A DNA stretch of 25,394 bases from Nitrospirota bacterium (GCA_020351835.1 CP070669.1:1575999-1601392), one strand, 5' to 3'; counted from the first letter of the stretch, positions 165-24,238 are shown. Made by a program: numbers and translations. Notes: generated by a model not told the origin, from the letters alone.

Positions 165-192
165 TTGACATAGTTTTAAAGCGATGTATAAT
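165..192 (+). promoter_or_regulatory. Sigma-70-type promoter for the small Sec-ORF/radical SAM cassette
   Basis: Perfect -35 TTGACA (165-170), 16-nt spacer, perfect -10 TATAAT (187-192) with TG directly upstream (185-186). The predicted TSS near 199 gives a leader of about 100 nt before the ATG at 301. Confidence 0.6.
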
Positions 193-300
193 TAGAAAAT
201 ATACCTATTGATAAATGTTTCTTTATAGGTAATGTCTATATAGATTGTTTCAACTCACGATCAGGGTCTTTTTTGTGATTTTTATCGAAAGGAGGTGAAT

Positions 301-513
301 ATGGACCTTAAAGAGCTGAAAAAGATACTTTCCGGTCTAGGGCTCGCCGGCCTTATAGCCGGTGCAAGCTTAATGGCTGCCGGCTGTGCAAGCACTGGCG
401 CAAGCGGTTGAGGAGCAGATAAGGCACCACCGGCCAAAAGCGGCTGAAGTGGTAGCTCCGGTGCAGGTAGCACCGATAATCCCGAAGGGAAAAGTGGTTG
501 AAGTTGATCTTAA
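301..513 (+). CDS. sbtA: Candidate selenocysteine-containing RiPP precursor/lipoprotein-like peptide (SbtA-like), 70 codons with 4 in-frame UGA
   Basis: AGGAGG (290-295) lies 5 nt before ATG 301. Reading UGA as U, the translation is MDLKELKKILSGLGLAGLIAGASLMAAGCASTGASG-U-GADKAPPAKSG-U-SGSSGAGSTDNPEGKSG-U-S-U-S-stop(TAA 511-513). The in-frame TGAs are at 409, 445, 499 and 505. Three of them follow Ser-Gly (AGC GGT TGA, AGC GGC TGA, AGT GGT TGA). Purine-rich first codon positions and high GC continue in the same frame past every TGA, then end at the TAA. The N-terminus looks like a signal peptide with a lipobox-like AAG/C. The gene sits directly upstream of a radical SAM/SPASM enzyme. Confidence 0.6.
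426..453 (+). promoter_or_regulatory. SECIS-like hairpin candidate for UGA-409
   Basis: ACCACCGGCC (426-435) pairs with GGCUG..GUGGU (442-453). This gives 10 bp including one G-U, a 2-nt AA bulge (447-448) and loop AAAAGC. The loop starts 27 nt after U409. The 3' arm contains the second UGA (445-447). There is no G in the first loop positions, so the match is imperfect. Confidence 0.3.
459..475 (+). promoter_or_regulatory. SECIS-like hairpin candidate for UGA-445
   Basis: CGGUGC (459-464) pairs with GCACCG (470-475), a 6-bp perfect stem with loop AGGUA. The loop starts 20 nt after U445 and has G at loop positions 2-3. Confidence 0.35.
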
Positions 514-533
514 CGTGCAGTTTGCACAATTAA
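510..533 (+). promoter_or_regulatory. SECIS-like hairpin candidate for UGA-499/UGA-505
   Basis: UUAA (510-513) and GUGCA (515-519) pair with UGCAC (523-527) and UUAA (530-533). The apical loop is GUU (520-522). There is a small internal loop (C514 opposite A528, A529). The loop starts 21 nt after U499 and 15 nt after U505. The 5' arm includes the terminal TAA. Confidence 0.35.
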
Positions 534-550
534 AGTAGTTCAAGGATGAT

Positions 551-586
551 AGGAACGGTGTGTTAAATAAATAGCACACCGTTCCT
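551..586 (+). terminator. Strong intergenic hairpin between precursor and maturase (partial terminator/attenuator or RNA-stability element)
   Basis: AGGAACGGTGTG (551-562) and CACACCGTTCCT (575-586) form a perfect 12-bp stem with a 12-nt AT-rich loop. The hairpin is followed by TATTTAG, a weak and interrupted T tract. Confidence 0.45.
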
Positions 587-639
587 TATTTAGTGGCTTT
601 CACGTAATCCTCAAAAATAATATAAAATAACTTAGGGAT

Positions 640-2253
640 ATGAGTAAGAAAAACGAAAGAAACGGGCTGATAAATGTACTTGAGGTCTTCCCAAGGACTG
701 CATCGATGTTAAATGACATAGTTAACGAAGAGATCATAAATAAATTCGGGATAGATCTTGAGCGTTTTCCGGATGAAGTAGAAAATATAAAGGAAAGCTA
801 TTCTCTTAAGGATTATATTGGTGATGTTGCAAGAATTGAGTATGCTCGTTTTAAAGCTAAAAATACTGAAGAAAGCATAGAGGAGCCGGAAAATAGAACG
901 GTCAATCCGTCATTTCAGCTTTTACAGGTCTCGTGGCAGAACCTTATATCGATCTTTAACGGAGATGACAAGGGTAAGGGTAATGGTAATGACATTATCA
1001 GTGGTGACCAGCTGATAATGGTTTGGAAGGACAAGGATGAAGATGAAGTAAGAATGGAGTATGCTTCGTCTGACGACCTGCTTGCGCTCAAGATAGTGGT
1101 TGAGGGGATAGGGCCTGAAGATTTAGTTAGTGATACAGACCTCACTATCGGCAAGATCGATAATGTTATAAGGAGTTCCATCGAAAAGGGGATATTGATA
1201 GCACCACCTTCTTCATTGGTCAGAGACCCGGATATCTTTAAGGAGATAAAGGATACTGGTGAGGAGTTCCTGGTTGCCGATACATTCACTTTGCAGTGGC
1301 ATATAACACAGAGCTGTGACCTTCACTGTAAACATTGTTACGACAGGAGCGACAGGACAAATACAGACCTTGCTGATGCTATAAGGATACTTGATGATAT
1401 GAGATCATTCTGCCTCGAGAGAAATGTAAAAGGGCATATTTCTTTCAGTGGAGGTAATCCCCTTATGCATCCTGATTTCCTCGATATATACAATGCTGCT
1501 TCCGACAGAGGTTTTTCTTTGGCTATCCTCGGTAATGTTGCTTCTAGAAAGCAACTAAAAGATATTATTGCTATACAGATGCCGGGATTTTACCAGGTAA
1601 GTCTCGAGGGGCTTGAAGGTCATAATGACAGTATTCGCGGTGAGGGATATTTCAGGAGAGTAATGGATTTCCTGACGGTGCTAAAGGAGTTGGGTATCTA
1701 TTCGATGGTTATGCTCACACTTACAAATGAAAATATCGATCAGGTGATCCCTCTTGCGGAACTCCTCAAGGGTAAAGTAGATAGCTTTACATTTAACCGC
1801 CTGTCTCTTGTAGGTGAGGGTGCATCTCTCAAAATGGCAGACAATGAAAAGTTCAGGAAATTCTTAGAGGACTATATTGAGCTGGCAGGAAAGAACAAGC
1901 ATGTAAGGCTAAAGGATAACTTTATCAATATTATCAGGAGAGAAAAGGGCCAAAACCCGTTCGGAGGATGCGCGGGGTACGGGTGCAGTGCCGCATTCAA
2001 TTTTATCACGGTTTTGCCGGACGGAGAGGTGCATGCATGCAGAAAGTTTCCATCAAAGATCGGCAGAATAATGGATGTCTCTCTTTCGGAACTGTATGAC
2101 TCGGAAATGGCGAAGAAATACCGTTCGGGACCTGAGGAATGCAGGGGTTGCGATATCCGTGCAGTATGCGGTGGATGTATGGCTGTAGCATACGGTTGCG
2201 GGAAGGACGTATTTAAAGAAAAGGACCCTTTTTGCTTCATGCGTTTGGTATAG
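640..2253 (+). CDS. sbtM: Radical SAM enzyme with C-terminal SPASM domain; probable peptide maturase (SbtM-like thio(seleno)oxazole-forming family)
   Basis: 537-aa ORF. The CxxxCxxC motif CDLHCKHCY has Cys codons at 1315, 1327 and 1336. SFSGGNP is a GGE-like SAM-binding motif. The Cys-rich C-terminus (GGCAGYGCSAAF...HACRKF...CRGCDIRAVCGGCMAVAYGCG...DPFCF, about 1965-2240) is typical of SPASM auxiliary Fe-S clusters. About 220 aa precede the radical SAM core. The start is uncertain: ATG 640 has AGGGA only 1 nt upstream, while ATG 706 has AAGGA 8 nt upstream. The radical SAM/SPASM call is secure. The SbtM assignment rests on gene context. Confidence 0.85.
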   Translation: MSKKNERNGLINVLEVFPRTASMLNDIVNEEIINKFGIDLERFPDEVENIKESYSLKDYIGDVARIEYARFKAKNTEESIEEPENRTVNPSFQLLQVSWQNLISIFNGDDKGKGNGNDIISGDQLIMVWKDKDEDEVRMEYASSDDLLALKIVVEGIGPEDLVSDTDLTIGKIDNVIRSSIEKGILIAPPSSLVRDPDIFKEIKDTGEEFLVADTFTLQWHITQSCDLHCKHCYDRSDRTNTDLADAIRILDDMRSFCLERNVKGHISFSGGNPLMHPDFLDIYNAASDRGFSLAILGNVASRKQLKDIIAIQMPGFYQVSLEGLEGHNDSIRGEGYFRRVMDFLTVLKELGIYSMVMLTLTNENIDQVIPLAELLKGKVDSFTFNRLSLVGEGASLKMADNEKFRKFLEDYIELAGKNKHVRLKDNFINIIRREKGQNPFGGCAGYGCSAAFNFITVLPDGEVHACRKFPSKIGRIMDVSLSELYDSEMAKKYRSGPEECRGCDIRAVCGGCMAVAYGCGKDVFKEKDPFCFMRLV

Positions 2254-2418: not shown

Positions 2419-2904
2419 ATGCACTTTATTTACATGTTTCTCATCATGTTCGGCTTCTGGATCGTGCTATCGGGGAAGTTCGATGCTTTCCATATAACAC
2501 TCGGGGTAATATCATGCCTGATAGTTTCATTTCTTTCTCTTGACCTTTTCTTCCATGAAACGAAGAAAAAGGGCAGGATCGCAGAGGTCGTACGCTTTTT
2601 GAGCTATATTCCATGGCTTGTAAAGGAGATCGTGCTGGCGACGATCCATGTTGCATTTATAGCGCTAAGGCCAAATGTCAAAGACAATATAGATCCCAAG
2701 GTTATCATGTTCAAAACCAGGCTTAAAAAGGACCTCTCGAAGGTGACATTCGCCAATTCAATAACTCTTACCCCGGGGACCATAACCATTAAGGTCTCAG
2801 ATGATGAGTTCTATGTTCACGCCCTGACTAAGAAGACGGCCGAGGGTCTGCCGGGAGAGATGGAAGAGCGGGTAGGTAAGGTCTTCAAGGAGTTCGGGGA
2901 ATGA
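2419..2904 (+). CDS. mrpE: Mrp/Mnh cation:proton antiporter subunit E
   Basis: 161 aa with two N-terminal TM helices, then the MnhE-type core including ANSITLTPGT. The stop overlaps the next start (ATGA at 2901-2904). Confidence 0.85.
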   Translation: MHFIYMFLIMFGFWIVLSGKFDAFHITLGVISCLIVSFLSLDLFFHETKKKGRIAEVVRFLSYIPWLVKEIVLATIHVAFIALRPNVKDNIDPKVIMFKTRLKKDLSKVTFANSITLTPGTITIKVSDDEFYVHALTKKTAEGLPGEMEERVGKVFKEFGE

Positions 2905-3221
2905 CGACATATTTCATTTACGCAGGTGTAGGACTCTGCTTTCTTATGTTCCTGGCGCTCTATCGTGTGATACTCGGGCCCACGGCAATAGACAGGCTGA
3001 TGGGCGTTAATGTGATCGGCACGAAGACGACCGTTCTTCTTATCGTGATAGGTCTTATTTACGGCAGGGTGGAGATGTTCGTAGATATTGCTATTGCCTA
3101 CGCTTTACTGAACTTCATTGCAACTGTAGGTGCTGCAAGGTATTTTCAGCATCGAAAGAACCTTTGCTCGGTTGGTTTCGGGCTCAGGCACAAGGAAGAT
3201 AAGGGGGATACCACGGAATGA
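2901..3221 (+). CDS. mrpF: Mrp/Mnh antiporter subunit F
   Basis: 106 aa, three TM segments, with GPTAIDRLMGVNVIGTKT typical of MrpF/PhaF. It is translationally coupled on both sides. Confidence 0.85.
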   Translation: MTTYFIYAGVGLCFLMFLALYRVILGPTAIDRLMGVNVIGTKTTVLLIVIGLIYGRVEMFVDIAIAYALLNFIATVGAARYFQHRKNLCSVGFGLRHKEDKGDTTE

Positions 3222-3550
3222 TCATTGCTCTGACGGTATTACTGACGGTCACAGGGTTCTTTTTCTTCTTTGCTACAACGATCGGACTGATAAGGTTCCC
3301 TGATTTCTATTCAAGGATGCATGCCGCGGGAAAGGGTGATACCCTGTCATCGCTGCTTATGCTTTTGGGCCTTGCAATTTACAGTCTTCATCATTTTTCG
3401 TTCGGCAACTTTCTTGTATCACTTAAGATAATTTTTATAATGGTATTTATATTCCTCGCGAGTCCTACGGCAACACACGCTATTATCGATGCAGGGTTCG
3501 AGTCCGGCGTAAAGCCGTGGACGAAGGAAGAGGAAAGGGCGGAAGAATGA
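3218..3550 (+). CDS. mrpG: Mrp/Mnh antiporter subunit G
   Basis: 110 aa with the MnhG signature RFPDFYSRMHAAGKGDTL. ATGA overlaps at both ends. Confidence 0.9.
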   Translation: MIIALTVLLTVTGFFFFFATTIGLIRFPDFYSRMHAAGKGDTLSSLLMLLGLAIYSLHHFSFGNFLVSLKIIFIMVFIFLASPTATHAIIDAGFESGVKPWTKEEERAEE

Positions 3551-4560
3551 TCTGGCAGATAGACCTGATGGTGCTGACGCTTATAGTGTTCTGTGCTTTT
3601 TCGGCCGTAATGGTAAAGGACCTGTTGAGCGCGGCAATAATATTCGGTGCATACAGTTTTTTAATGTGCCTTCTCTGGACCGAAATGGGTGCGGTTGATG
3701 TGGCCTTTACAGAAGCGGCGGTTGGGGCGGGCGTAAGTACCATATTCATGATAGCGGCTATATTCAGGACCTCCCGTTCGGTCAAGCATAGGAGCAGGGG
3801 CAGGAGGTTCTATAAGCTGATCGGGTTCTTTGCAGCTGCTGTGACCGGTATGGTTCTGTTATACGGTCAGAGCGATTTCCCCGGATGGGCCGATCCGAAC
3901 TCACCGGCGAGCTCTCATCTTTCACCATACTTTATAACCCATACCATAAGCGATACGGCCGTGCCTAACATTGTTACCTCGGTGCTCGCAGATTACAGAG
4001 GGTTTGATACTATGTTCGAAACGGCGGTAATCTTTACTGCCGGAATAGCCGTTATATTCGTTTTAAGGCAATACCGGCGTGATCAGACCGATGTTGCCGG
4101 TACTGATGAGGTTGCCTACCAGAGCCCTATCATTCAAACCGTATCACGACAGATGGTGCCGTTCATACAGTTGTTCGCCCTTTACGTCGTGGCACATGGC
4201 CACCACAGTCCTGGTGGCGGGTTCCAGGGAGGAGTGATACTTGGAGCAAGTTTCATCCTTGTCGGGCTCAGCTACGATCTAAGGTCGGTCCTTAAGAAGA
4301 TGGGTGAGGGCCCTAACATTATCTTTGGTAACCTGGGGGTATTTCTGTATGCCGGGATCGGTGCCGTATGCATACTTCTAGGGGCTAATTTTCTTGATTA
4401 CAGTGTCTTAAGCAGGATCCTGCCGGCAACAGATAGTGTGATGGCAAGATCCCATGGAATACTGGGTGTCGAGATAGGAGTAGCAATTGCAGTAATGGCT
4501 ATCATGATAGCTATATATGTGAATATATCATCTCACGGAAAATATGATAAGGGGCTTTAA
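3547..4560 (+). CDS. mrpB: Fused MbhD/DUF4040-like plus MnhB-domain membrane subunit (MrpA C-terminal/MrpB equivalent)
   Basis: I place the start at ATG 3547 (MIWQIDL), which forms an ATGA overlap with the mrpG stop, rather than at the track's 3517. The N-terminal roughly 80 aa resemble MbhD/DUF4040. The MnhB motifs NIVTSVLADYRGFDTMFE and GHHSPGGGFQGG are present. Confidence 0.8.
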   Translation: MIWQIDLMVLTLIVFCAFSAVMVKDLLSAAIIFGAYSFLMCLLWTEMGAVDVAFTEAAVGAGVSTIFMIAAIFRTSRSVKHRSRGRRFYKLIGFFAAAVTGMVLLYGQSDFPGWADPNSPASSHLSPYFITHTISDTAVPNIVTSVLADYRGFDTMFETAVIFTAGIAVIFVLRQYRRDQTDVAGTDEVAYQSPIIQTVSRQMVPFIQLFALYVVAHGHHSPGGGFQGGVILGASFILVGLSYDLRSVLKKMGEGPNIIFGNLGVFLYAGIGAVCILLGANFLDYSVLSRILPATDSVMARSHGILGVEIGVAIAVMAIMIAIYVNISSHGKYDKGL

Positions 4561-4563
4561 TAG

Positions 4564-4947
4564 ATGGATGTAATAATCGCCAGCTATAATTACTGGATAT
4601 ACATACTTTTGATGATGATCGGACTGTATGCCATGCTTTCCAAGAACAATCTCGTAAAGAAGATCATCGGTATGAGCATATTCCAGGCCGCAATCATCGT
4701 CTTCTATGTATCGATCGGTGCTAAGAGGGGCGCTACGATCCCGATCATTGAGCATGGGCACGGCCATGGTGCCGCAGAGCATGCGGTAAATGTTATGAAC
4801 TACGTAAACCCGCTCCCCCATGTGCTGATGCTGACTGCCATTGTTGTATCGGTGAGTACGCTCGGTGTGGCCCTTGCCATTATCCTTGGGATACACAGGA
4901 GGTATGGAACGGTCGAGGAGGACGAGATCATGGAGAAGATACAATGA
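4564..4947 (+). CDS. mrpC: Mrp antiporter subunit C (NuoK-like)
   Basis: 127 aa, three TM segments, with the conserved YVNPLPHVLMLTAIVV region (MrpC has Y.DPLPQAL.LTAIVI). It carries an extra His/Gly-rich loop, EHGHGHGAAEH. Confidence 0.85.
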   Translation: MDVIIASYNYWIYILLMMIGLYAMLSKNNLVKKIIGMSIFQAAIIVFYVSIGAKRGATIPIIEHGHGHGAAEHAVNVMNYVNPLPHVLMLTAIVVSVSTLGVALAIILGIHRRYGTVEEDEIMEKIQ

Positions 4948-6437
4948 TCTCACCGGAGCAGTACCCTGTACTGATAGTGGTTATTCCACTTTTGTCGGCC
5001 TTCATTATTAATGTGATCGGATGGTTCAGAAAAGGTTTCTCTTATCCGCTTATCGTTCTTTCCCTCATAATCACCTTTTATCTGTCAGTCAGCACATTGC
5101 TTCAGGTGGTAGATGGAGGTGCTATCAGTTACCGCCTTGGCGGATGGCCTCCTCCTTTCGGAATAGAATACGTTATAGACCATCTTAACGCTTTAGTTCT
5201 TGTAGTAATATCTTTTGTGAGCCTGGCTGCAGCCGTTTTTTCGAAGGAGAGCGTTAAAAAAGAGCTTCCCGACAGAATACCCCAGTACTATACTCTTTTT
5301 ATACTTCTGGTAACGGGCCTGCTCGGAATGACGATAACCGGGGATGCCTTTAACTTATATGTACTTATAGAGATCGCGGCATTAACTTCATATGCTCTTA
5401 TAGCATTTGGCCGTGACAGAGCGCTGGTATCCAGCTTTAACTACGTGATAATGGGTACCGTTGGCGCCAGTTTTTATTTGCTTGGAGTTGGCCATCTTTA
5501 CATCATGACCGGATCGCTTAATATGGGTGACCTGCTCTCAATACTGCCGGCGATATCAGGTTCCAGGGCTATTTTCGTAGCTTTCCTGCTTATAATAGTC
5601 GGTATCTGGACCAAGATGGCCTTTTTCCCGCTTCATGGCTGGCTTCCTAACGCTTATACTTATGCCCCTACCGCAACGGGTGTCCTCGTTGCCCCTCTCA
5701 TGACCAAGGTGTCTGTATATATAATGATAAGGCTGATGTTCTCGGTATTTTCTGCCGATTATGTGTTCAATACCCTTAACGTCCATGACATTATTGTCTG
5801 GATGGCTGTTGCGGCTATTATCGGCGGCTCTCTGCTTGCTCTCACGCAGACAGATTTCAGGAGGATGCTTACCTATCTTATAGTTGCTGAAGTAGGTTAC
5901 ATGGTGGGTGGTGTATGGCTGGCTAACAGCGCCGGCATAACCGGGGCTATATTGCATATCCTGAACGATGCCCTGATGACACTCTGCCTGTTCCTTGTAG
6001 CAGGAATAATCTACCACAAGACCAGAGGACATCATCTGGATGATATCAGAGGGCTATACCGCAAGATGCCGTTTACGATGGCGGCATTTACAGTTGGGGC
6101 CCTTTCCATGATAGGAGTCCCTCCAACAGTGGGTTTCTTCAGCAAGTGGTATCTGATACTCGGTGCTATCGATGCCGGGCAGTGGGGTTTTATGGCAGCG
6201 CTTATCATATCGAGCCTCATAAATGCCGTCCTGTTCTTCAAGGTCATTGAGGTAGGATACTTTGAGCCGATGCACGGCCATCACGATGATGGACACCATG
6301 AGGTGACTATCGATGAGGCTCCATTCAGCATGCTGGCACCATTATATGTTATTGCCGTAAGCTTAATTGTCGTAGGTATATATACGAGCAGCATTATTAC
6401 CAATATCATAGCTCATGCGGTACCGAAAGGATTGTAG
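4944..6437 (+). CDS. mrpD: Mrp antiporter subunit D (NuoN/ND2-like antiporter-like subunit), copy 1
   Basis: 497 aa polytopic protein with Proton_antipo_M-type motifs (FPLHGWLPNAY, KMPFT...GVPPTVGFFSKWYL). The C-terminal loop is His-rich, MHGHHDDGHHE. Confidence 0.85.
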   Translation: MISPEQYPVLIVVIPLLSAFIINVIGWFRKGFSYPLIVLSLIITFYLSVSTLLQVVDGGAISYRLGGWPPPFGIEYVIDHLNALVLVVISFVSLAAAVFSKESVKKELPDRIPQYYTLFILLVTGLLGMTITGDAFNLYVLIEIAALTSYALIAFGRDRALVSSFNYVIMGTVGASFYLLGVGHLYIMTGSLNMGDLLSILPAISGSRAIFVAFLLIIVGIWTKMAFFPLHGWLPNAYTYAPTATGVLVAPLMTKVSVYIMIRLMFSVFSADYVFNTLNVHDIIVWMAVAAIIGGSLLALTQTDFRRMLTYLIVAEVGYMVGGVWLANSAGITGAILHILNDALMTLCLFLVAGIIYHKTRGHHLDDIRGLYRKMPFTMAAFTVGALSMIGVPPTVGFFSKWYLILGAIDAGQWGFMAALIISSLINAVLFFKVIEVGYFEPMHGHHDDGHHEVTIDEAPFSMLAPLYVIAVSLIVVGIYTSSIITNIIAHAVPKGL

Positions 6438-6447
6438 GCCAGAACAA

Positions 6448-7917
6448 ATGGAAACAAAAATATGCATCAGGCCCCTTCTTGCGATACTCGTGTCTCTTAT
6501 AGCCGTGGCCCCTATCGTACTTAGCAGTAAAAGGCCGAACCTTCGCGAGGGATGGACATTTATTGCCGGTATCATAAAGTTCTCTTTGGTCGCATCTATG
6601 GTACCGCTCGTTCTTGATGGTGTAAGGCTGGAGTATACCGTAGCTCAGGTTCTGCCCGGAATGGCGATCAAATTGGCGGTCGACCCGATGGGTTTGATGT
6701 TCGCATTAGTATCTTCTTCATTATGGATAGTAACCTCGGCTTATTCCATCGGTTACATGCGCGGGCTCGATGAGCATAGCCAGACGAGATACTTCTCTTT
6801 CTTTGCCATTGCGCTTTCATCTACCATAGGGGTAGCGTTCTCTGCAAACCTGTTCACCATGTACCTGTTCTATGAGATGCTTTCCCTGGCCACTTATCCT
6901 CTTGTTACTCACCATCAGGACGATGAGTCGCGATACTCGGGGAGAAAATACCTCGCATTCATACTTGGCACATCAATAGGTTTCGTGCTCCCTGCAATGC
7001 TGATATCTTACAACCTTGCGGGCACCCTGGAGTTTGCCAATAATGGCTTCCTTTCAGGTACTACATCAAAGACAGTAATGACGGTTCTGCTTATAATGTT
7101 CGTGTTCGGATTTGCAAAAGCTGCGATAATGCCGTTCCATGGATGGCTTCCTGCCGCGATGGTCGCCCCTACACCCGTCAGCGCTCTTCTTCATGCTGTT
7201 GCTGTTGTTAAGGTCGGAGTCTTCTCGATATTCCGCATCATAACAGGAGTATTCGGTACCGATATGCTGAGGTCGCTTGAACTCGGGACCGTTGTCGCTT
7301 ATCTGGCAGCATTCACAATAATAATAGCGTCACTTATAGCACTTTCACAGGACGGGCTGAAAAGAAGGCTGGCCTTTTCGACGATAGGTCAGCTTTCCTA
7401 CATAGTTCTTGGAGCAGCACTTCTTTCCCCGAAAGGTATGTCCGGTGGACTTGTCCATATAGCTATGCATGCATTCGGCAAGATAACCCTGTTCTTCTGC
7501 GCAGGTGCAATATATGTTGCTACCAGGAAAAAGAATATCAGTGATATGGTCGGTATCGGGAAAAGGATGCCCGTGACGATGATAGCTTTTCTGATAGGTT
7601 CTATGAGCGTTATTGGATTGCCTCCGACCGGAGGGTTCTTCAGTAAGTGGTATCTTGTTCTCGGAACTATAGAAGCTGATCAGATCGTTATGCTATTTGT
7701 TCTTTTAACAAGCTCTCTTCTTAATGCTGCATACTTTCTGCCTATTGTATATAAGGCATTCTTCTGTACTGCAGAGGAATCTATGTTTGATGATAAGGTA
7801 GCTGAGGCACCTGTGTGGTGCGTTGCACCGCTTTCTTTAACGGCCTTGGTCTCTATCGCTTTGTTCTTTTATCCGACCTTATTTATGAGATTAGCAGAGA
7901 TGGCATTAGGTGTCTGA
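6448..7917 (+). CDS. mrpD: Mrp antiporter subunit D/NuoM-like antiporter-like subunit, copy 2
   Basis: Same family motifs (MPFHGWLPAAM, KRMPVT...GLPPTGGFFSKWYL). I prefer the start at ATG 6448 (METKICIRP) because it does not overlap. ATG 6415, which overlaps the previous gene by 23 nt, is an alternative. Confidence 0.8.
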   Translation: METKICIRPLLAILVSLIAVAPIVLSSKRPNLREGWTFIAGIIKFSLVASMVPLVLDGVRLEYTVAQVLPGMAIKLAVDPMGLMFALVSSSLWIVTSAYSIGYMRGLDEHSQTRYFSFFAIALSSTIGVAFSANLFTMYLFYEMLSLATYPLVTHHQDDESRYSGRKYLAFILGTSIGFVLPAMLISYNLAGTLEFANNGFLSGTTSKTVMTVLLIMFVFGFAKAAIMPFHGWLPAAMVAPTPVSALLHAVAVVKVGVFSIFRIITGVFGTDMLRSLELGTVVAYLAAFTIIIASLIALSQDGLKRRLAFSTIGQLSYIVLGAALLSPKGMSGGLVHIAMHAFGKITLFFCAGAIYVATRKKNISDMVGIGKRMPVTMIAFLIGSMSVIGLPPTGGFFSKWYLVLGTIEADQIVMLFVLLTSSLLNAAYFLPIVYKAFFCTAEESMFDDKVAEAPVWCVAPLSLTALVSIALFFYPTLFMRLAEMALGV

Positions 7918-7927
7918 GGAGGTTAAT

Positions 7928-8176
7928 ATGCAAGGTGAAAAAGAAAAGGATTATTTCGAAAGGCCGGGCAATATCAAGAAGCTTTGGATAGCTCTGTATG
8001 TTGTGTGCGCTTTAACTATAGTATTTGAGCTGTTCATTGACAGGACACCTCATTTTGGTATTGATAGAATATTCGGTTTCTATGCATTGCTTGGATTTGT
8101 CTCTTGTGCGATCCTGATCATTATTGCTAAGGTGATCGGATTTATCCTGAAGAAGAACGAGGACTATTATGATTAA
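7928..8176 (+). CDS. Small two-TM membrane protein of unknown function embedded in the mrp operon
   Basis: GAGGAGG (7916-7922) lies 5 nt before ATG 7928, so the track's GTG 7910 start is less likely. The protein is 82 aa with two hydrophobic helices. Its 3' end overlaps the next gene by 8 nt, which suggests translational coupling. Confidence 0.65.
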   Translation: MQGEKEKDYFERPGNIKKLWIALYVVCALTIVFELFIDRTPHFGIDRIFGFYALLGFVSCAILIIIAKVIGFILKKNEDYYD

Positions 8177-9929
8177 TATACATCCTGGATGGCTTTTAAT
8201 TGCAGGCGCACTGCTTTTGCCGTTGATCGGTGGTAAAGCGCGCAACTGGTTCGTTATATTTCTTCCTGCCGCGGCATTGTACATTATTTCGCAGCTCCAG
8301 CCGGGCATGTCACTGCAGTATCATTTCTTCGGGTATGAACTTACTTTCCTCAGGGTAGACAGGTTAAGCAAGATATTCGGTTATATCTTTACTCTTAATG
8401 CTTTTGCCGCATTCATATATGCCTTTTACGTAAAGGATAGTACTCAGCACATGGCGGCTCTTTTTTATATTGGCAGTGCGCTGGGATCGGTTTTCGCCGG
8501 AGACCTCGTGTCCTTATATTTTCACTGGGAAGTAATGGCGATCGCGTCTACTTTCCTGATCCTTTCAAGGAGAACGAAAAAGGCGATGGGTGCCGGATTA
8601 AGGTACATACTTATGCATATTTTCGGAGGTCTCTGCCTGTTGGCGGGAATAGTGCTTTATATCTCAAAAACAGGCTCGATCGATTTTAACGCTATGACCG
8701 AAAGGACCGCGGCAACGTATCTCATACTCGTCGGGATACTTGTTAACGCAGCAGCACCTCCTCTTTCCGCGTGGCTTTCAGATGCCTATCCCGAAGCCAC
8801 AGTTACCGGTGGGGTTATACTGAGCGCGTATACCACAAAGACCGCAGTGTATACCCTGATAAGAGGATTTCCCGGCTGGGAGATACTTATAGTGGTCGGT
8901 TGCATAATGACGATCTACGGTATTATATATGCGCTTCTTGAGAATGACATGCGTCGTATACTTGCCTATAGCATTATTAACCAGGTCGGTTTCATGGTGA
9001 CGGGCGTAGGGATCGGTACTGTCATGTCATTGAACGGGGCCGCAGCGCACGCTTTTGCTCATATCATATACAAAGCGCTGCTATGGATGTCCGCAGGTTC
9101 GGTCCTTTACATGACAGGTAAAAGCAAGTGTACAGAGCTCGGGGGTCTGTATAAAACTATGCCTTGGACAATGATTTTTGGTACGATAGGGGCACTTGCG
9201 ATCTCTTCGTTCCCAGGCACGAGTGGCTTCACGACAAAAACACTTATTATAGAGAGCTCGGTCCATCAGCATCTCTTTTGGGTATGGATGGTACTGGAGA
9301 TCGCTTCAGCCGGCGTTTTCCTGCATGCCGGAATTAAGTTCCCCTATTTTGTGTTCTTTGCCAAGGACAGGGGCCTCCGTCCCGGAGAAACGAATAGGTC
9401 GATGCTGGTTGCGATGGCCTTTATGGCGTTCCTGTGTATCTTCCTCGGGTTGTTCCCGGGTCCTCTTTATGATATTCTCCCTTTTGAAATGGAACACTAT
9501 CACGCATATTCCTTTGCACATGTTACTACTCAGTTGCAGCTCTTAATGCTGTCAGCTCTTGTTTTCTTCCTGTTCCTTCCTCTTCTTAAAAGAACTGACA
9601 CTATTGCGATCGATACCGATTGGATCTACAGAAGAGGAGGTGCTTTTTTCTATTCTGTGGTTGACAGGGTTCTAAATGGGTTTAATGAGGTTGTGGAAAG
9701 ATTGGTGGTAAAGGGGTTGGTCCGGTCCATTGTCAATTTTTCACAGCTCGCTCCTGCTCTGGTGCTCTCTGCACTTATATATCCCTATTGGGTAATAAGC
9801 GGTTTTGACAAGAAAGAGAGGGCACAAAGGAAGGAAGAGCTGTATCGTGACATCAATACGGGAGCTATGTCGGTTGGCTTAATATCCATCTCTGTTCTCC
9901 TTTATTTAGGGATATTGTTTATCTTTTAA
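8169..9929 (+). CDS. Large antiporter-like subunit (NuoL/MrpA-N-like) with C-terminal extension
   Basis: 586 aa with a Proton_antipo_M-type core (SAWLSDAYPEATV, KTMPWT...). Two C-terminal segments follow. The first, of about 110 aa, includes a long amphipathic stretch (YRRGGAFFYSVVDRVLNGFNEVVERLVVKGLVRSIVNF). The second carries the terminal TM helices. This resembles the lateral helix plus anchor of NuoL/MrpA. Confidence 0.75.
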   Translation: MINIHPGWLLIAGALLLPLIGGKARNWFVIFLPAAALYIISQLQPGMSLQYHFFGYELTFLRVDRLSKIFGYIFTLNAFAAFIYAFYVKDSTQHMAALFYIGSALGSVFAGDLVSLYFHWEVMAIASTFLILSRRTKKAMGAGLRYILMHIFGGLCLLAGIVLYISKTGSIDFNAMTERTAATYLILVGILVNAAAPPLSAWLSDAYPEATVTGGVILSAYTTKTAVYTLIRGFPGWEILIVVGCIMTIYGIIYALLENDMRRILAYSIINQVGFMVTGVGIGTVMSLNGAAAHAFAHIIYKALLWMSAGSVLYMTGKSKCTELGGLYKTMPWTMIFGTIGALAISSFPGTSGFTTKTLIIESSVHQHLFWVWMVLEIASAGVFLHAGIKFPYFVFFAKDRGLRPGETNRSMLVAMAFMAFLCIFLGLFPGPLYDILPFEMEHYHAYSFAHVTTQLQLLMLSALVFFLFLPLLKRTDTIAIDTDWIYRRGGAFFYSVVDRVLNGFNEVVERLVVKGLVRSIVNFSQLAPALVLSALIYPYWVISGFDKKERAQRKEELYRDINTGAMSVGLISISVLLYLGILFIF

Positions 9930-10096: not shown

Positions 10097-11059
10097 ATGT
10101 TGCGAATGAGACATCTTATTCTTATTATTTCTGTAGTTATGGTCGTTGTATCTGTATTTGGGGTTGCTTTCGGATCTGAAGTGGCCGAAGCACCTGCAGC
10201 TGTAGAAGGGGATGGCCAAGCCTGGTGGTTCTGGCCGCTAGTCCTGCTCATACTCTGTTTCTTCCTTGGTGTATTTGCGGTCCTTGCTGGTGTAGGGGGC
10301 GGTGTTCTTTACGTCCCTATCGTTAGTGGGTTCCTGCCTTTTCATCTTGATTTCGTAAGGGGGGCCGGATTGATAGTCGCCCTTGCAGGTGCACTTGCAG
10401 CCGGCCCGGGACTGCTTAAGAAGGGCATGGCCGACCTGAGACTTGCCATACCTGTTGCGCTGATAGCGTCTACTTGCGCAATATTCGGTGCGATGATAGG
10501 GTTGGCACTTCCTACACATATAGTTCAGACCCTTCTCGGAGCCACGATACTCGGTATAGTTTTGATTATGATAAAGGCCAAGAAGTCAGAGTTCCCGGAG
10601 GTCCCTAATCCTGATAGATTGTCACAATCACTCAGAATAATGGGCGTATACTATGAGCCGACCAGGAAAGAGGATATCAACTGGCAGATTCACAGGACGC
10701 CTCTCGGTCTCGGCCTGTTCGTCTTTATAGGAATCATGGCCGGTATGTTCGGGCTCGGCGCCGGTTGGGCAAATGTACCGGTCCTTAACCTTGTTATGGG
10801 AGCGCCGATAAAGATATCCGTTGCTACGAGTAAGTTCCTTTTATCGATAACGGATACATCGGCAGCCTGGATATACCTTAATAATGGTGCTGTTCTTCCT
10901 TTGATGGTGGTTCCGTCAGTGGTAGGGATAATGCTGGGATCGTTCGTCGGAGTAAGGGTCCTTGCCGTTACGAAGCCGTCTGTAATAAGGATACTCGTAA
11001 TTGCCGTTCTGGGTGTTGCCGGCCTTAAGGCACTTCTTAAGGGTCTTGGTATAGGATAG
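10097..11059 (+). CDS. TauE/SafE-family (DUF81) anion permease, copy 1, with N-terminal signal-like segment
   Basis: AGGAGG lies 8 nt upstream. The 320-aa polytopic protein has a Gly-rich internal duplication typical of TauE/SafE (LAGVGGGVLYVPI in the first half, MFGLGAGWANVP in the second). The first roughly 27 aa look like a signal peptide (VAFG/SE). Confidence 0.8.
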   Translation: MLRMRHLILIISVVMVVVSVFGVAFGSEVAEAPAAVEGDGQAWWFWPLVLLILCFFLGVFAVLAGVGGGVLYVPIVSGFLPFHLDFVRGAGLIVALAGALAAGPGLLKKGMADLRLAIPVALIASTCAIFGAMIGLALPTHIVQTLLGATILGIVLIMIKAKKSEFPEVPNPDRLSQSLRIMGVYYEPTRKEDINWQIHRTPLGLGLFVFIGIMAGMFGLGAGWANVPVLNLVMGAPIKISVATSKFLLSITDTSAAWIYLNNGAVLPLMVVPSVVGIMLGSFVGVRVLAVTKPSVIRILVIAVLGVAGLKALLKGLGIG

Positions 11060-11086
11060 ATAAGGGATAAATACAGGAGGATAAAT

Positions 11087-11497
11087 ATGGAAAATAAAGC
11101 AACAGAAGAACAGATACTATATGCGAATCTGTTGAATAAAGGAATGCTGATAGGGCTTGTTGGTCTAGTTATCACCTTCGTTGTATATGGAGGGGGAATT
11201 TTGAAGCCTTTTATTCCGATCGGTGATGTTCAGAACTACTGGGTGCTCCCTGTAAGTGAATATCTCGAAAAAAGCGGAATGCATGCCGGTTGGTGGTGGC
11301 TTAGTAATCTGAAGTTCGGTGATCTGCTGAATTTTCTGCCGATCGCTTTTCTTTCAGCAGTAACGATCTTTTGTTATGCAGCTATAGTGCCGGGGCTTTT
11401 AAAGAAGAAGGATACGGCATACGTTGTTCTTGCCATACTTGAGGTGATAGTGCTTGTGGTAGCAGCCTCAGGGATACTAGGTTCCGGAGGACATTAA
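11087..11497 (+). CDS. Small integral membrane protein, possibly DUF1634-like TauE partner
   Basis: AGGAGG RBS. 136 aa with about four hydrophobic helices. DUF1634 proteins commonly sit next to TauE/DUF81 genes, but this assignment is from memory and is not verified. Confidence 0.55.
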   Translation: MENKATEEQILYANLLNKGMLIGLVGLVITFVVYGGGILKPFIPIGDVQNYWVLPVSEYLEKSGMHAGWWWLSNLKFGDLLNFLPIAFLSAVTIFCYAAIVPGLLKKKDTAYVVLAILEVIVLVVAASGILGSGGH

Positions 11498-11519
11498 AGG
11501 GCACTTGGTTAATTATGAA

Positions 11520-11545
11520 GGGCGGCCCGAGGCCGCCCTTTTTTA
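11520..11545 (+). terminator. Rho-independent terminator
   Basis: GGGCGGCC (11520-11527), loop CGA, GGCCGCCC (11531-11538), followed by TTTTTT (11539-11544). Confidence 0.85.
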
Positions 11546-11574
11546 TTGACCTGCCAATTGTTAGGCTGTATATT
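11546..11574 (+). promoter_or_regulatory. Putative sigma-70 promoter for TauE copy 2 (would give a leaderless or near-leaderless mRNA)
   Basis: -35 TTGACC (11546-11551), 17-nt spacer, TG-extended -10 TATATT (11569-11574). The ATG of the next gene is at 11583. Confidence 0.45.
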
Positions 11575-11582
11575 GAACTGTA

Positions 11583-12482
11583 ATGGAACTGCTTAAGATA
11601 ATTTTCCCAGCTTCAGGGGTAGAAACATATCTGTTCATTCCTCCACTCGTTGCCTTTGTTATATCTTTTTTCTCTTCAATGGCAGGTCTGTCCGGTGCAT
11701 TCTTTATCCTTCCGTTCCAGATGAGCGTATTCGGTTTTACGTCTCCTTCTGTAAGCTCAACAAACTTCCTGTATAACGTAGTAAGTATTCCTGGAGGGGT
11801 GTTAAGATTCATTCGGGAAAAACGGATGTCCTGGCCTCTCATTTTTGTTATAGTTGCTGGAACATTTCCAGGTGTCTTCGCTGGTTACTTTATAAGAATA
11901 AGATACCTTCCCGACCCGAAAGCATTCAAGCTGTTCGTTGGCCTTGTATTGTTTTATATAGGGATAAGGTTGATAAGAGGTTTCAGGAATAAAAGGAAAA
12001 GGGCCGATCAGGGTGATGCAAGTATGTTCGTTATTTCTAATGTCAGTTATAGCCTGAAAAGAATAAGTTACGATTTTAATGGTGAGACGTTCTCGTTCAG
12101 TGTTCCCGCTATGTTCTTGCTGTCCGCTATAGTAGGAATTATCGGTGGCATTTATGGTATCGGAGGGGGTGCCATCATAGCTCCATTCTGTGTTTCTGTG
12201 TTCGGGTTACCCGTATATACTGTTGCCGGTGCCGCTCTTATGGGGACGTTGATAACGTCCGTTGCGGGGGTATTTGTATACAGCATTGTTCCTTTCGGCG
12301 ATGGTATGGCGGCTCCTCCTGACTGGTCCCTGGGAGCGCTTTTCGGCCTGGGGGGGCTTGCGGGTATATATCTGGGTGCGAAGGTCCAGAGATTCATGCC
12401 CGAACGCGTGATAAAGGTAATACTTGCACTAATTATATTCTGGGTATCAGCAAGATATATATATCAGTTTATAGCCGGGTAG
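11583..12482 (+). CDS. TauE/SafE-family (DUF81) anion permease, copy 2
   Basis: 299-aa polytopic protein with Gly-rich repeat motifs (MAGLSGAFFILPF, IYGIGGGAIIAPF). No SD precedes the start. Confidence 0.8.
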   Translation: MELLKIIFPASGVETYLFIPPLVAFVISFFSSMAGLSGAFFILPFQMSVFGFTSPSVSSTNFLYNVVSIPGGVLRFIREKRMSWPLIFVIVAGTFPGVFAGYFIRIRYLPDPKAFKLFVGLVLFYIGIRLIRGFRNKRKRADQGDASMFVISNVSYSLKRISYDFNGETFSFSVPAMFLLSAIVGIIGGIYGIGGGAIIAPFCVSVFGLPVYTVAGAALMGTLITSVAGVFVYSIVPFGDGMAAPPDWSLGALFGLGGLAGIYLGAKVQRFMPERVIKVILALIIFWVSARYIYQFIAG

Positions 12483-12491
12483 AACGGTCTG

Positions 12492-12947
12492 CTAACGCCC
12501 GGTCCCGTTCTTCTTAAGCAGCTCACTTATTTTACGGTTCTTTCTGGACATGGAGGTCATTAAAGCTGTCTTTCCGTAAATGTCCTTCTTTTCAGTATCT
12601 GCTCCGTTTTCTAATAATATCTTTACGATAAGGGGGTTCCCTGTGACGACGGCCCACATCAGTACCGTTGTGCCTTCACTGTCGCTTGCATTTACATCGG
12701 CTCTTTTGGAAATAAGGAACCTGGCCATCTTAACATTCTCATTGACCACTGCCCACATGAGAGTTGTCTTTCCGTAATGGTCCCTCGTGTCCACAGGGAT
12801 GCCTGAGTTCACGAGCTCCATTACCTTGGCCGTGTCATTATGGTATGCATATTTGATTATCTTATGGACGCTCTTCGAGGCAGACAACGAAATGCTGGGG
12901 GCAACAAGGCATATTATAATAACGAATATAATTTGTCTGAAGGACAT
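12492..12947 (-). CDS. Secreted ankyrin-repeat protein
   Basis: 151 aa with an N-terminal signal peptide (MSFRQIIFVIIICLVAPSISLSA/SKS). About three ANK repeats follow (GKTTLMWAVVNENVKMARFLISKRADVN, GTTVLMWAVVTGNPLIVKILLENGAD, GKTALMTS). Confidence 0.8.
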   Translation of the reverse strand: MSFRQIIFVIIICLVAPSISLSASKSVHKIIKYAYHNDTAKVMELVNSGIPVDTRDHYGKTTLMWAVVNENVKMARFLISKRADVNASDSEGTTVLMWAVVTGNPLIVKILLENGADTEKKDIYGKTALMTSMSRKNRKISELLKKNGTGR

Positions 12948-16811: not shown

Positions 16812-18023
16812 ATGGCATTAGTTAATCCGCATGGTAAGGACAAAAAGCTGAAACCTCTTATTCTCGAGGGAAGTGAGCTCGAGGCAGCGAAGAAGAAGGC
16901 TGAATCACTTAAGAAAGTACCTATGACCTCAAGGGAGACCGGTGACCTCATTATGTTAGGTATCGGCGGTTTTACCCCGCTTGAGGGTTTTATGGGATAC
17001 GAGGACTGGAAGGACGTATGTGACGACATGAAAACCTCGGATGGAACGTTCTGGCCTATCCCGATCACTCTGTCAGCCGACAAGGATCTCGCCGACAGCA
17101 TCAAAGAGCATGAGGAAGTAGCTCTTGTTGATGAGGAGAGTGGCGAGACCATGGGTATCATGACAGTACGTGAGAAGTACACAATAGACAAGGCTCATGA
17201 GTGCCAGCAGGTATTTACAACGACCGATATGGAACATCCGGGTGTCGCAAAGGTTATGGAACAGAAAGAGGTAAACCTGGCCGGTCCGGTGCAGGTCCTG
17301 AGCGAAGGTTCATTTCCGACAGAGTATAAAGGTATCTACATGACACCGGCGGAGTCAAGGAAGCTCTTCTCAGAAAAAGGCTGGTCGACAGTTGCAGCGT
17401 TCCAGACAAGAAATCCTATGCACCGTTCTCATGAGTATCTTGCAAAGATAGCCATCGAGATATGTGATGGTGTTTACATCCACATGCTCCTTGGTAAGCT
17501 AAAGGCGGGAGATATCCCGGCAGACGTAAGACAGAACGCTATTGATACACTTACCGAGAACTACTTCACAAAGGAAACAGTTTCAGTTGGCGGATATCCA
17601 CTCGATATGAGATATGCTGGCCCAAGAGAGGCGCTTTTGCATGCGGTGTTCAGGCAGAACTTCGGATGCAGCCACCTTATCGTAGGTCGTGACCATGCAG
17701 GTGTTGGTGACTACTACGGACCCTTCGATGCACATGAGATATTTGATAAGATCCCGGAAGGCGCACTCGAGACACAGCCGCTCAAGATCGATTGGACATT
17801 CTGGTGCCACAAATGTGATCAGATGGCATCAATGAAGACATGTCCGCATGGTAAGGATGACAGGCTCATACTAAGCGGTACAAAGCTAAGAAAAATGCTC
17901 TCAGAGGGCGAGGATGTATCAGAGAAGTTCAGTCGTCCCGAGGTTCTTAAGATCCTGAGGAATTACTATGAGGGTCTCACCGAAAAGGTCGAGATCAAGA
18001 TGCACAAGCATGCTGAAGGATAA
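16812..18023 (+). CDS. sat: Sulfate adenylyltransferase (ATP sulfurylase), dissimilatory type
   Basis: 403 aa with the [11 protein letters not shown] and GRDHAGVG motifs. A CHKC...CPH cluster near the C-terminus resembles the Zn site of bacterial Sat enzymes. AAGGAGG RBS. The gene starts 23 nt after adk. Confidence 0.95.
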
Positions 18024-18115
18024 AGCAGGATTATGGGTTGCCATCATTTTGATGGCTGAGTTTTGCAAACAAGCGGCTTACTTTAGGTCGCAAACATCAA
18101 GAAGGAGGTATATGT

Positions 18116-18553
18116 ATGCCTAGTTATGTGATCACTGAAAAATGTGACGGCTGTAAAGGTCAGGAGAAGACAGCCTGTATGTACATCTGTCCTAATGACC
18201 TGATGAAGCTGGATCGCGACAGGATGAAGGCATGGAACCAGGAACCCGATCAGTGCTGGGAGTGCTACAACTGTGTTAAGATCTGCCCTCAGCAGTCAAT
18301 CGAGATCAGGGGTTACCAGGATTTCAATCCGCTCGGTGGAAATGTTATTCCTCTCAGGGGTACAGATTCCATTATGTGGACTATCAAGTTCAGGAACGGC
18401 GTTCTCAAGAGGTTCAAGTTCCCTATCAGGTCGACCGCTGAAGGTTCAGTAGATCCTTATGCAGGTAAGCCGGAAGCTGACCTCTCAAAGATCAAGCAGC
18501 CAGGTCATTTTACGCAGCAGGGTGCTGGCGTAGAGATGCCAACAATAAAGTAA
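18116..18553 (+). CDS. aprB: Adenylylsulfate (APS) reductase beta subunit
   Basis: 145 aa beginning MPSYVITEKCDGCKG...CMYICP and containing CWECYNCVKICP (two 4Fe-4S motifs), with the typical AprB C-terminal tail. AGGAGG lies 7 nt upstream. Confidence 0.95.
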   Translation: MPSYVITEKCDGCKGQEKTACMYICPNDLMKLDRDRMKAWNQEPDQCWECYNCVKICPQQSIEIRGYQDFNPLGGNVIPLRGTDSIMWTIKFRNGVLKRFKFPIRSTAEGSVDPYAGKPEADLSKIKQPGHFTQQGAGVEMPTIK

Positions 18554-18572
18554 TAAAGGAGGTTTAAAAAAG

Positions 18573-20576: not shown

Positions 20577-20589
20577 TTATAGCTTCAAA

Positions 20590-20620
20590 TTGGATGGGCA
20601 GGTCATTCCTGCCCATCCAA
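20590..20620 (+). terminator. Strong hairpin between aprA and qmoA (partial terminator or mRNA-stabilising stem-loop)
   Basis: TTGGATGGGCAGG (20590-20602), loop TCATT, CCTGCCCATCCAA (20608-20620): a 13-bp perfect stem. It is followed by A5 and then TTTT, so there is no immediately adjacent U tract. Confidence 0.5.
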
Positions 20621-20703
20621 AAAAATTTTGCTTTGAGCCTTCAGGTCTGAAGATCTTTAAACGATAATCAGGCTTGAATCTTCAAAGCGAACGGAGGAAA
20701 AAC

Positions 20704-24198: not shown

Positions 24199-24238
24199 GT
24201 ATTGTGAAAATAATTAACCTTTTATCGGAGGTATAAAT

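Follow-up and report, generated by a model that had tools for sequence, protein, structure and literature searches.

A stretch of 25,394 nucleotides from a Nitrospirota bacterium (GCA_020351835.1, CP070669.1:1575999-1601392), analysed over its whole length and referred to here as the window, contains near its beginning a two-gene cassette that encodes a putative selenocysteine-containing precursor peptide (sbtA) and a radical S-adenosylmethionine (SAM) enzyme with a SPASM region (sbtM). All of the parts named in an initial annotation of this DNA were found in place by a check of open reading frames (ORFs) and translations: sbtM lies on the same strand as sbtA, its ATG (640) follows the sbtA TAA (511-513) after 126 nt, or after 132 nt if UGA 505 is the stop, and its 537-aa product has the motif CDLHCKHCY and the C-terminal SPASM cysteines, as had been claimed. 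The cassette had been described as SbtA/SbtM-like; on the evidence of sequence profiles it is almost certainly a full member of that family, as both products exceed the cutoffs of the respective hidden Markov models (HMMs) and GenBank annotates both genes accordingly.

Family membership of the two genes

The product of sbtM matches TIGR04082 at 709.7 bits (cutoff 350, E 2.2e-213), with residues 16-533 aligned to the entire profile (1-516 of 516), and is 100% identical to GenBank UCG77610.1, a "selenobiotic family peptide radical SAM maturase" encoded on a 2.29-Mb contig of a Nitrospirota metagenome-assembled genome (MAG). Pfam Radical_SAM (PF04055) spans residues 222-376 above threshold, and the SPASM region is recognized by TIGR04085 (41.4 bits, cutoff 27) and by Pfam SPASM (PF13186, 35.4 bits); the two TIGR searches that had been suggested for this protein thus both score above cutoff. 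TIGR04340, the next in rank, has a cutoff of 400 bits and gives 162.6, and all others fall far below their cutoffs. Because the TIGR04082 match covers positions 1-516, the N-terminal 220 residues or so are part of the family definition and are conserved in all homologues, contrary to the earlier view of them as an uncharacterized extension that made the architecture unusual.

The closest relatives of SbtM are found in MAGs of Nitrospirota and Thermodesulfovibrionales. Full-length homologues with scores above 570 bits number at least 120, and a further 494 stretches came from metagenomes, many of them named Nitrospirota or Thermodesulfobacteriota, a spread broader than Geobacter and "Desulfbacteria", to which the pair has been described as limited (PMC9204691).

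The SbtA peptide, with selenocysteine (U) written as cysteine, exceeds the TIGR04081 cutoff of 30.5 bits with a score of 37.8, its residues 1-26 being aligned to positions 1-26 of the 27 in the profile. It has no match in Pfam, and PF27804 (GSU1558_StbA-like) is recorded on ORFs homologous to it. The translation of the ORF is MDLKELKKILSGLGLAGLIAGASLMAAGCASTGASG-U-GADKAPPAKSG-U-SGSSGAGSTDNPEGKSG-U-S-U-S, with in-frame TGA at 409, 445, 499 and 505. The corresponding GenBank entry (UCG77609.1, "selenobiotic family radical SAM modification target peptide") comprises the first 36 codons of sbtA (301-408) and ends at the first UGA, so that the whole selenocysteine-bearing core is missing from the protein databases; the same truncation probably affects most SbtA database entries.

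For comparison, 67 distinct peptides adjoining SbtM homologues were collected from genome loci and from metagenomic SbtM loci, a search of genome contigs with a single SbtM protein having given four relatives (L001-L004) and a metagenome scan with an alignment 80 more loci. This abundance of homologous peptides beside SbtM genes runs against the possibility, raised initially, that orthologues would have no conserved small ORF upstream. All five Nitrospirota-type loci (the window and the four genome relatives) have the same leader followed by two to four in-frame TGA codons and a final TAA or TAG stop. Three selenocysteines are encoded by 28 of the 67 peptides, two by 26, four by seven (four of these seven counts depend on an ambiguous U-x-UGA ending), one by four and none by two; multiple selenocysteine sites, which the initial annotation took to be new, are therefore the family norm (mode 3, range 0-4), and the literature already has "at least two SeCys" (PMC9204691) and "2" (PMC13188914). 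The sites in the window read SG-U-G, SG-U-S and SG-U-S; family-wide, U is preceded by S, G or A and followed by S, G or T. The core of the window peptide is a low-complexity sequence of G, S, T, K, P and E. Six loci (L010, L054, L059, L064, L080 and L086) have two sbtA paralogues upstream of a single sbtM, one with a lipobox cysteine and three selenocysteines, the other with two selenocysteines and without the leader cysteine (…LIAAESP…).

Table 1. Features of the sbtA-sbtM cassette, with positions counted from the first nucleotide of the window
Feature	Position	Strand	Remarks
Sigma-70-type promoter, TTGACA-16 nt-TATAAT	165..192	+	12/12 consensus; sole perfect site in 1-2600; -35 box begins at 165
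Strong ribosome-binding site, AAAGGAGGTG	288..297	+	5 nt upstream of ATG 301
sbtA precursor ORF	301..507	+	68 aa if UGA 505-507 stops; 70 aa to TAA 511-513 if read through
Leader or signal-peptide-like region, residues 1-28, ending in lipobox LMAAG-C29	301..387	+	K4, K7, K8; 15-residue hydrophobic stretch, mean Kyte-Doolittle 1.91
UGA-409 (first), putative selenocysteine codon (ASG-U-G)	409..411	+	Read-through needed for the downstream UGA codons that bear selenocysteine insertion sequences (SECIS)
Non-canonical hairpin after UGA-409, ACCAC-CGGCC-AAAAGC-GGCUG-AA-GUGGU	426..453	+	3' arm holds UGA-445
UGA-445 (second), selenocysteine codon (KSG-U-S)	445..447	+	445-477 is the best match in the window to covariance model R1: 32.3 bits, E 2.6e-6
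Family-type SECIS hairpin, CGGUGC-AGGUA-GCACCG	459..475	+	11 nt past UGA-445; core GUGC-AGGUR-GCAC recurs in family
UGA-499 (third), selenocysteine codon (KSG-U-S)	499..501	+	499-531 is the second-best R1 match, marginal: 11.5 bits, E 0.24
UGA-505 (fourth), probably the true stop	505..507	+	7 nt from hairpin core; TAA 511-513 is in-frame back-up stop
Terminal SECIS-like hairpin, GUGCA-GUU-UGCAC	515..527	+	13 nt after UGA-499, 7 nt after UGA-505; z = -0.7
Terminator-like hairpin between sbtA and sbtM	551..586	+	15-bp stem, then UUAUUU; -24.5 kcal/mol, z = -6.7
sbtM, encoding a 537-aa radical SAM/SPASM maturase of the thio(seleno)oxazole-forming type	640..2253	+	TIGR04082
SbtM N-terminal module, residues 1-215: helical domain, then beta3-alpha3 RiPP recognition element (RRE)-like domain	640..1284	+	Predicted by AlphaFold2
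Radical SAM CX3CX2C motif CDLHCKHCY (Cys226, Cys230, Cys233)	1315..1338	+	Invariant in 109 homologues
SPASM region, eight conserved Cys (C444, C449, C467, C501, C504, C510, C513, C532)	1969..2238	+	Invariant in alignment A3

Selenocysteine codons and hairpins

The genetic code of the host is standard, since TGA serves as the ordinary stop codon of six of the 22 other genes of the window; a reassigned code, with UGA read as glycine or tryptophan, was rejected on the same count. Selenocysteine recoding was evaluated with a covariance model (R1) derived from 70 UGA sites of other loci, none of them from the window, and scored over both strands of the whole 25-kb window, where its best match falls on UGA-445 and its second-best on UGA-499 (Table 1). 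Across the family, a strong hairpin begins 10-15 nt after 70% of 168 in-frame UGA codons, versus 2.4% of shuffled sequences and 5% of 20 core cysteine codons from these peptides. The core of the hairpin, GUGC-(A)GGU(R)-GCAC, covaries as GCGC/GCGC, AUGC/GCAU, GUAC/GUAC and GAGC/GCUC, and changes on both sides of the stem occur in 103 cells versus 28 expected, in a set of hairpins pre-selected for pairing; because of that pre-selection, reliance is placed on the unselected statistics, namely the 168 UGA codons, the cysteine-codon control and R1. The GUGCAGUUUGCAC hairpin that follows UGA-499 is common to the terminal SECIS of many relatives. A search of 150-700 against Rfam at a permissive threshold gave chance-level matches only and no SECIS family.

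UGA-409 is followed by a hairpin of another kind, the 3' arm of which includes the second UGA. Folding of 412-460 yields -20 kcal/mol (z = -3.4, none of 200 shuffles as stable), and the closest relative, L006, has an analogous stem (CUCCAC/GUGGAG) with a compensatory A-U to U-A swap relative to the hairpin at 426-453. If the SECIS-bearing UGA codons downstream are to be translated, UGA-409 must be read through, and no in-frame start codon occurs at 412-444.

Cysteine stands in place of selenocysteine in the homologues L008, L072 and L007. L008 and L072 have cysteine at every modification site, and L007, L012, L017, L019, L023 and L043 have a mixture of the two residues. Cysteine codons of SbtA lack a downstream hairpin, save one in L007, which is a probable case of recent selenocysteine-to-cysteine change.

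N-terminal module of SbtM

The AlphaFold2 model of the N-terminal module (18-sequence alignment; predicted local distance difference test score (pLDDT) 84.1, predicted template-modelling score (pTM) 0.78) comprises a helical domain (residues 13-74) and three strands with three helices (93-183) in the topology of a recognition element of peptides that are made on ribosomes and modified after translation (RiPPs), and E67, N89, W99, K151 and R195 within it are invariant across the SbtM family. When it was compared with the PDB by Foldseek, the sole match below E 1e-3 was 3DEE (NGO1945, a DUF2063 representative; E 1.2e-6, TM-scores 0.57/0.61 over 200 columns), the next matches being the TglHI holoenzyme (chain A) and, at weak scores, MbnC and a lasso RRE, TbiB1. 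Six of 90 family members have sub-threshold matches to Pfam DUF2063 and six to NGO1945_C (best E 0.0024 and 0.014, respectively), and a profile of the N-terminal alignment found only a weak sigma-factor helix-turn-helix match among PDB sequences (E 0.31). The suggestion that the N-terminus recognizes the leader gains from the RRE-like fold of the prediction, and on the model the first 215 residues or so are plausibly a peptide-recognition module. The full-length model (pLDDT 82.9) is nearest to the peptide maturases CteB and SuiB.

Leader peptide and linked genes

The SbtA leader has a basic n-region and a hydrophobic h-region, and the sequence up to Cys29 matches the lipobox rule, in agreement with the initial description of it as resembling a lipoprotein signal. 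Of the 67 relatives, 29 match it likewise; roughly ten others terminate in xPGC, and the remainder in AxA-like sites (ANA-QQ, AGA-QQ, ASA-QQ). In L084, a gene divergent from sbtM (at 1293) and running from about 1244 down to about 745 on the minus strand joins an SbtA-type leader and one UGA to a cytochrome c; the in-frame UGA (QAA-U-AG) is followed 13 nt downstream by the hairpin GGUUCC-GGU-GGAACC, and the remainder is a class-I cytochrome c (CNTCH). The product would be a selenocysteine-containing, SbtM-associated periplasmic cytochrome, as c-type cytochromes are matured in the periplasm and such a domain needs export there.

The cassette is not accompanied by a gene for a protease, a transporter or immunity. 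The initial annotation had remarked on this for the window, and it holds family-wide, with neighbouring genes that vary from locus to locus among those examined.

Transcription signals and neighbouring genes

The ribosome-binding site AAAGGAGGTG is positioned for ATG 301 and not for GTG 295, and ATG 301 is therefore taken as the start of sbtA; GTG 295 was rejected, since the Shine-Dalgarno sequence overlaps this codon and every homologue begins MD. L001-L004 and L006 likewise have the motif GAAAGGAGGTG ahead of their sbtA start codons. The ribosome-binding site is all that the upstream regions of the relatives have in common, which leaves no candidate for a conserved element of the 5' untranslated region (UTR). 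Directly 3' of the perfect promoter, at 202-231, there is an imperfect inverted repeat (TACCTATTGATAAA / TTTCTTTATAGGTA) that could be an operator or a 5'-UTR hairpin and is not conserved in the upstream regions of the relatives. The terminator-like hairpin between the two genes was discarded as a family feature; since a comparable site exists in just six of 49 related loci, any control of stoichiometry that it might provide is local, not family-wide. A weak promoter-like site (9/12) follows that hairpin at 599-628.

The flanks fit the earlier statement that the cassette is bounded by a divergent ileS and by an mrp operon. Upstream, the only match of the 21 codons on the minus strand (3-65) is weak (E 0.035) and falls on the N-terminal part of a model for isoleucine-tRNA ligase; downstream, a promoter-like site at 2336-2365 precedes an mrp/mnh antiporter operon (2419-9929) encoding Mrp/Mnh subunits E, F, G, B and C and three D-like subunits. 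Farther downstream are genes for TauE-type, CPA2-type and nhaA transporters, adk, and the sat, aprBA and qmoABC-like genes, which identify the host as a sulfate reducer. The complete dissimilatory sulfate reduction block occupies 16812-25348 (sat, aprB, aprA, two HdrA-like genes of QmoA/QmoB type and a ferredoxin/membrane gene resembling qmoC). Two TauE/SafE-family transporter genes at 10097-12482 flank a 136-aa ORF (11087-11497) with no family match; two loci of Deltaproteobacteria type (L089 and L090, 1-905) likewise have a TauE gene, some 5 kb upstream of sbtAM, which may be coincidence. Between transporter genes, the minus strand at 12492-12947 codes for an ankyrin-repeat protein of 151 aa.

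Alternative interpretations

It is scarcely credible that SbtM is a radical SAM/SPASM enzyme that does not act on peptides, for example of the anaerobic sulfatase-maturating enzyme (anSME) type, and that the small ORF is adjacent by coincidence. SPASM architecture is generic, and the proposed SbtM chemistry resembles anSME oxidation (PMC9204691), but TIGR04340, the best model outside the family, stays far short of its cutoff, nearly all metagenomic SbtM loci, and the genome loci L001-L004, have an SbtA-type ORF alongside, and the nearest solved folds are peptide maturases; an anSME-like or other radical SAM family is effectively refuted by HMM scores, adjacency and fold matches together. The reading of the UGA codons as plain stops, with the 36-aa GenBank peptide as the product and no selenium in it, is also very improbable. 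Besides the end of the GenBank entry at the first UGA, several observations weigh against recoding as presented here: the R1 match at UGA-409 is not significant (4.9 bits), leaving that codon without a family-type SECIS; the match at UGA-499 is marginal and its hairpin weak by energy (Table 1); a figure of 89.6% paired positions (alignment A5) is biased, as the hairpins were pre-selected for pairing; and neither selA, selB, selD nor tRNA-Sec was seen in the 25-kb window, where a tRNA scan found nothing, so that the selenocysteine machinery of the host is assumed. A 36-aa product, however, would consist of the leader alone and offer SbtM neither Gly-Cys nor Gly-selenocysteine to act on, whereas the downstream frame, the UGA positions and the hairpins are conserved in the 67 homologues, the all-cysteine relatives have cysteine at the same positions, and 445-477 fits the family SECIS model closely. 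A product of 70 aa with four selenocysteines and a tandem U-S-U end, all four UGA codons being decoded, is unlikely. Such a reading would account for the in-frame TAA two codons after UGA-505, and four-selenocysteine peptides exist (L022, L053 and L085), as does a close U-S-S-U pair (L081). UGA-505, however, has no R1 match and lies 7 nt from the GUGC core, versus 12-17 nt for selenocysteine codons of the family. The same U-x-UGA ending occurs in L060, L067 and L057; L060 and L067 have neither TAA nor TAG within dozens of codons downstream, and read-through there would be long and nonsensical, so that the second UGA must be their stop. Among relatives with a U-x-stop ending, about 12 use TAA or TAG and four use TGA, near the ordinary 27% TGA stop usage of the window. 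Given the hairpin spacing and the endings of L060 and L067, three selenocysteines, in a product of 68 aa ending ...KSGUS, are the better count and probably the correct one, in place of the four initially proposed.

With respect to the leader, it could be held that the conserved N-terminus is a RiPP leader and nothing else, the peptide remaining cytoplasmic or being freed by an unlinked protease and transporter as a "selenobacteriocin" and not as a lipoprotein. The motif (D/E)LKKxLAGxxIAGLLxG, in the region modelled by TIGR04081, is far more conserved than ordinary signal peptides and fits a RiPP leader at least as well; a 2026 review names the family "Selenobacteriocin" (PMC13188914); and 38 of the 67 relatives fail the strict lipobox rule, so that lipidation cannot be the family-wide mechanism. 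The lipobox test itself is a match to a PROSITE-type pattern ([LVI..][ASTG..][GAS]-C, Cys at 15-35). In favour of export are the anatomy of every leader (basic residues, some 15-18 hydrophobic residues and a short polar end), terminating in a lipobox cysteine or an AxA-like site, the cytochrome c domain that bears such a leader in one relative and needs to reach the periplasm, the lack of a dedicated protease or transporter in any locus examined, and the precedent of the bufferins, in which one N-terminus acts as a signal for the general secretory (Sec) pathway (PMC11626156). Confinement to the role of RiPP leader is therefore rather doubtful, and export by the Sec pathway, in this host as a lipoprotein, appears from the sequences to be somewhat the likelier. 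The high conservation suggests that the leader also serves as the recognition sequence for SbtM. As to the module that would bind it, the likeness to DUF2063 consists of a predicted model, 15% identity and sub-threshold Pfam matches, and the SbtM of the window itself has no Pfam match in this region, points that likewise tell against the assignment.

Proposed pathway and significance

In this canonical sbtA-sbtM cassette, carried by a Nitrospirota bacterium that reduces sulfate, decoding, modification and export would probably proceed as follows. A short mRNA would be driven by the perfect sigma-70 promoter and translated from the very strong ribosome-binding site, with UGA 409, 445 and 499 read as selenocysteine under the direction of hairpins within or just after the coding sequence and termination at UGA 505, to give a 68-aa pre-peptide. 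The DUF2063/RRE-like N-terminal module of SbtM would bind this precursor, and the radical SAM/SPASM core, by analogy with the Geobacter lovleyi enzyme from which the selenooxazole chemistry is carried over to this locus, would oxidize each SG-U unit to a 5-selenooxazole with the loss of four hydrogens per conversion. The modified peptide would then cross the membrane by the Sec pathway, receive a lipid at Cys29 and be cut by signal peptidase II, to yield a membrane-anchored, disordered periplasmic peptide with three selenooxazoles; this route would make a dedicated protease or transporter unnecessary. What the analysis itself shows is membership of the family, the signals for recoding, a lipobox pattern and a fold prediction.

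The cassette of the window is an ordinary SbtA/SbtM pair that public annotation already labels as such, and by itself is of little significance; the residual value is at the level of the family, in selenocysteine-dense peptides that are truncated in databases and in the hypothesis of exported selenooxazole lipopeptides. Prokaryotic selenoproteins mostly contain a single selenocysteine, a few having two or three (PMC13188914); SbtA peptides, with typically two to four, each with its own SECIS, in an ORF of about 200 nt, are among the most selenocysteine-dense. The signal-peptide anatomy of the leader, of general secretory or lipoprotein type, would explain the minimal two-gene cassette. The biological role of the SbtA/SbtM class of RiPPs is not known (PMC9204691), and the predicted NGO1945/DUF2063 fold common to SbtM and to partner proteins of the MNIO thiooxazole pathway suggests a function in periplasmic metal or redox chemistry.

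Comparison with known systems

The SbtA/SbtM pair was predicted by Haft and Basu in 2011 (as cited in PMC9204691 and PMC11002830). The SbtM of G. lovleyi (Lewis et al. 2021) holds about three [4Fe-4S] clusters and removes 4 Da per Gly-Cys or Gly-selenocysteine to form a thio(seleno)oxazole (PMC9204691, PMC11002830); the product absorbs at about 305 nm, and the chemistry is known for the G. lovleyi enzyme only (PMC9204691, PMC12668002). The cassette of the window resembles this system in the full-length match of its enzyme and the match of its leader above their cutoffs, in the two-gene layout, in selenocysteine placed between small residues and followed, most clearly at UGA-445, by SECIS hairpins, and in the combination of CX3CX2C with a multi-cysteine SPASM region. 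It differs in its host, a Nitrospirota sulfate reducer outside the range given in the literature; in its three (possibly four) selenocysteines, versus precursors that "likely have at least two SeCys" (PMC9204691, PMC11002830) or have two with the family motif SGUG in the 2026 review (PMC13188914); and in the motif SG-U-[SG], not GGUG, with an explicit lipobox cysteine. By sequence comparison, all of these differences are within the family norm of the metagenomes.

Bacterial SECIS elements are typified by that of E. coli fdhF, in which an apical stem-loop (GGUUGCAGGUCUGCACC) is located 11 nt after the UGA. The SbtA hairpins are similarly short and G-C-rich with a G/U-rich loop (AGGUR, GUU or GGUC) and begin about 10-15 nt past the UGA, inside the coding sequence. 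In contrast, SbtA packs several SECIS into an ORF of about 200 nt, each encoding a G-A-G-[SG]-T segment, the last of them lies in the 3' UTR, where it often overlaps the stop codon, and UGA-409 has a different, longer hairpin.

Among solved structures, the best matches to the SbtM model are CteB (5WGG, 5WHY) and SuiB (5V1Q, 5V1S, 5V1T), with E-values of 7e-15 to 2e-13 and the same order of N-terminal recognition domain, radical SAM barrel and SPASM. These enzymes are 15-19% identical to SbtM, make thioether or C-C cross-links and not oxazoles, and have a PqqD-like RRE of about 100 aa, whereas SbtM has a two-domain, DUF2063-like module of about 200 aa.

Bufferins are formed from BufA precursors by the MNIO enzyme BufB with its DUF2063 partner BufC (PMC11626156, PMC12452194), which install 5-thiooxazoles on these exported, copper-binding peptides (PMC11626156), and 3DEE has been named as a DUF2063-associated RRE paired with precursors that bear Sec signal peptides (PMC12710340). 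The window cassette is not itself a bufferin system, a candidate rejected because there is neither an MNIO enzyme, with no match to that family among the ORFs scanned in the window, nor a DUF2282-type precursor. The catalysts are unrelated, a DUF692 iron oxidase in bufferins and a radical SAM/SPASM enzyme in SbtM; the cores of SbtA are short low-complexity sequences that lack a predicted fold and match neither DUF2282 nor BUF_6/12Cys; SbtA has selenium in place of sulfur and occurs in anaerobes, and copper binding is shown for bufferins only. A metal-binding role for modified SbtA, by analogy with bufferins, is a tentative possibility. The two systems would nevertheless share a class of heterocycle, the 5-thio(seleno)oxazole made from cysteine or selenocysteine, if SbtM acts here as in G. 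lovleyi; both have Sec-type signal peptides, putative in SbtA, about 16% of Buf2 bufferins being predicted lipoproteins (PMC11626156, PMC12452194), and no dedicated exporter; both include occasional cytochrome c fusions, such as that of L084 (PMC12452194); and on the structural model both may use a recruiting module of NGO1945/DUF2063 fold, which in bufferins stands as a protein of its own and in SbtM would be part of the enzyme. It is conceivable, though at present not the likelier case, that SbtA peptides as a family are neither cytoplasmic nor bacteriocin-like RiPPs but Sec-exported, often lipid-anchored periplasmic poly-selenooxazole peptides, the selenium counterpart in anaerobes of the copper-buffering bufferins, and that SbtM has captured a DUF2063/NGO1945-type module of the kind that serves MNIO enzymes as a separate partner. 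If so, the two systems would represent convergence of unrelated catalysts on a single heterocycle, export route and recognition fold.

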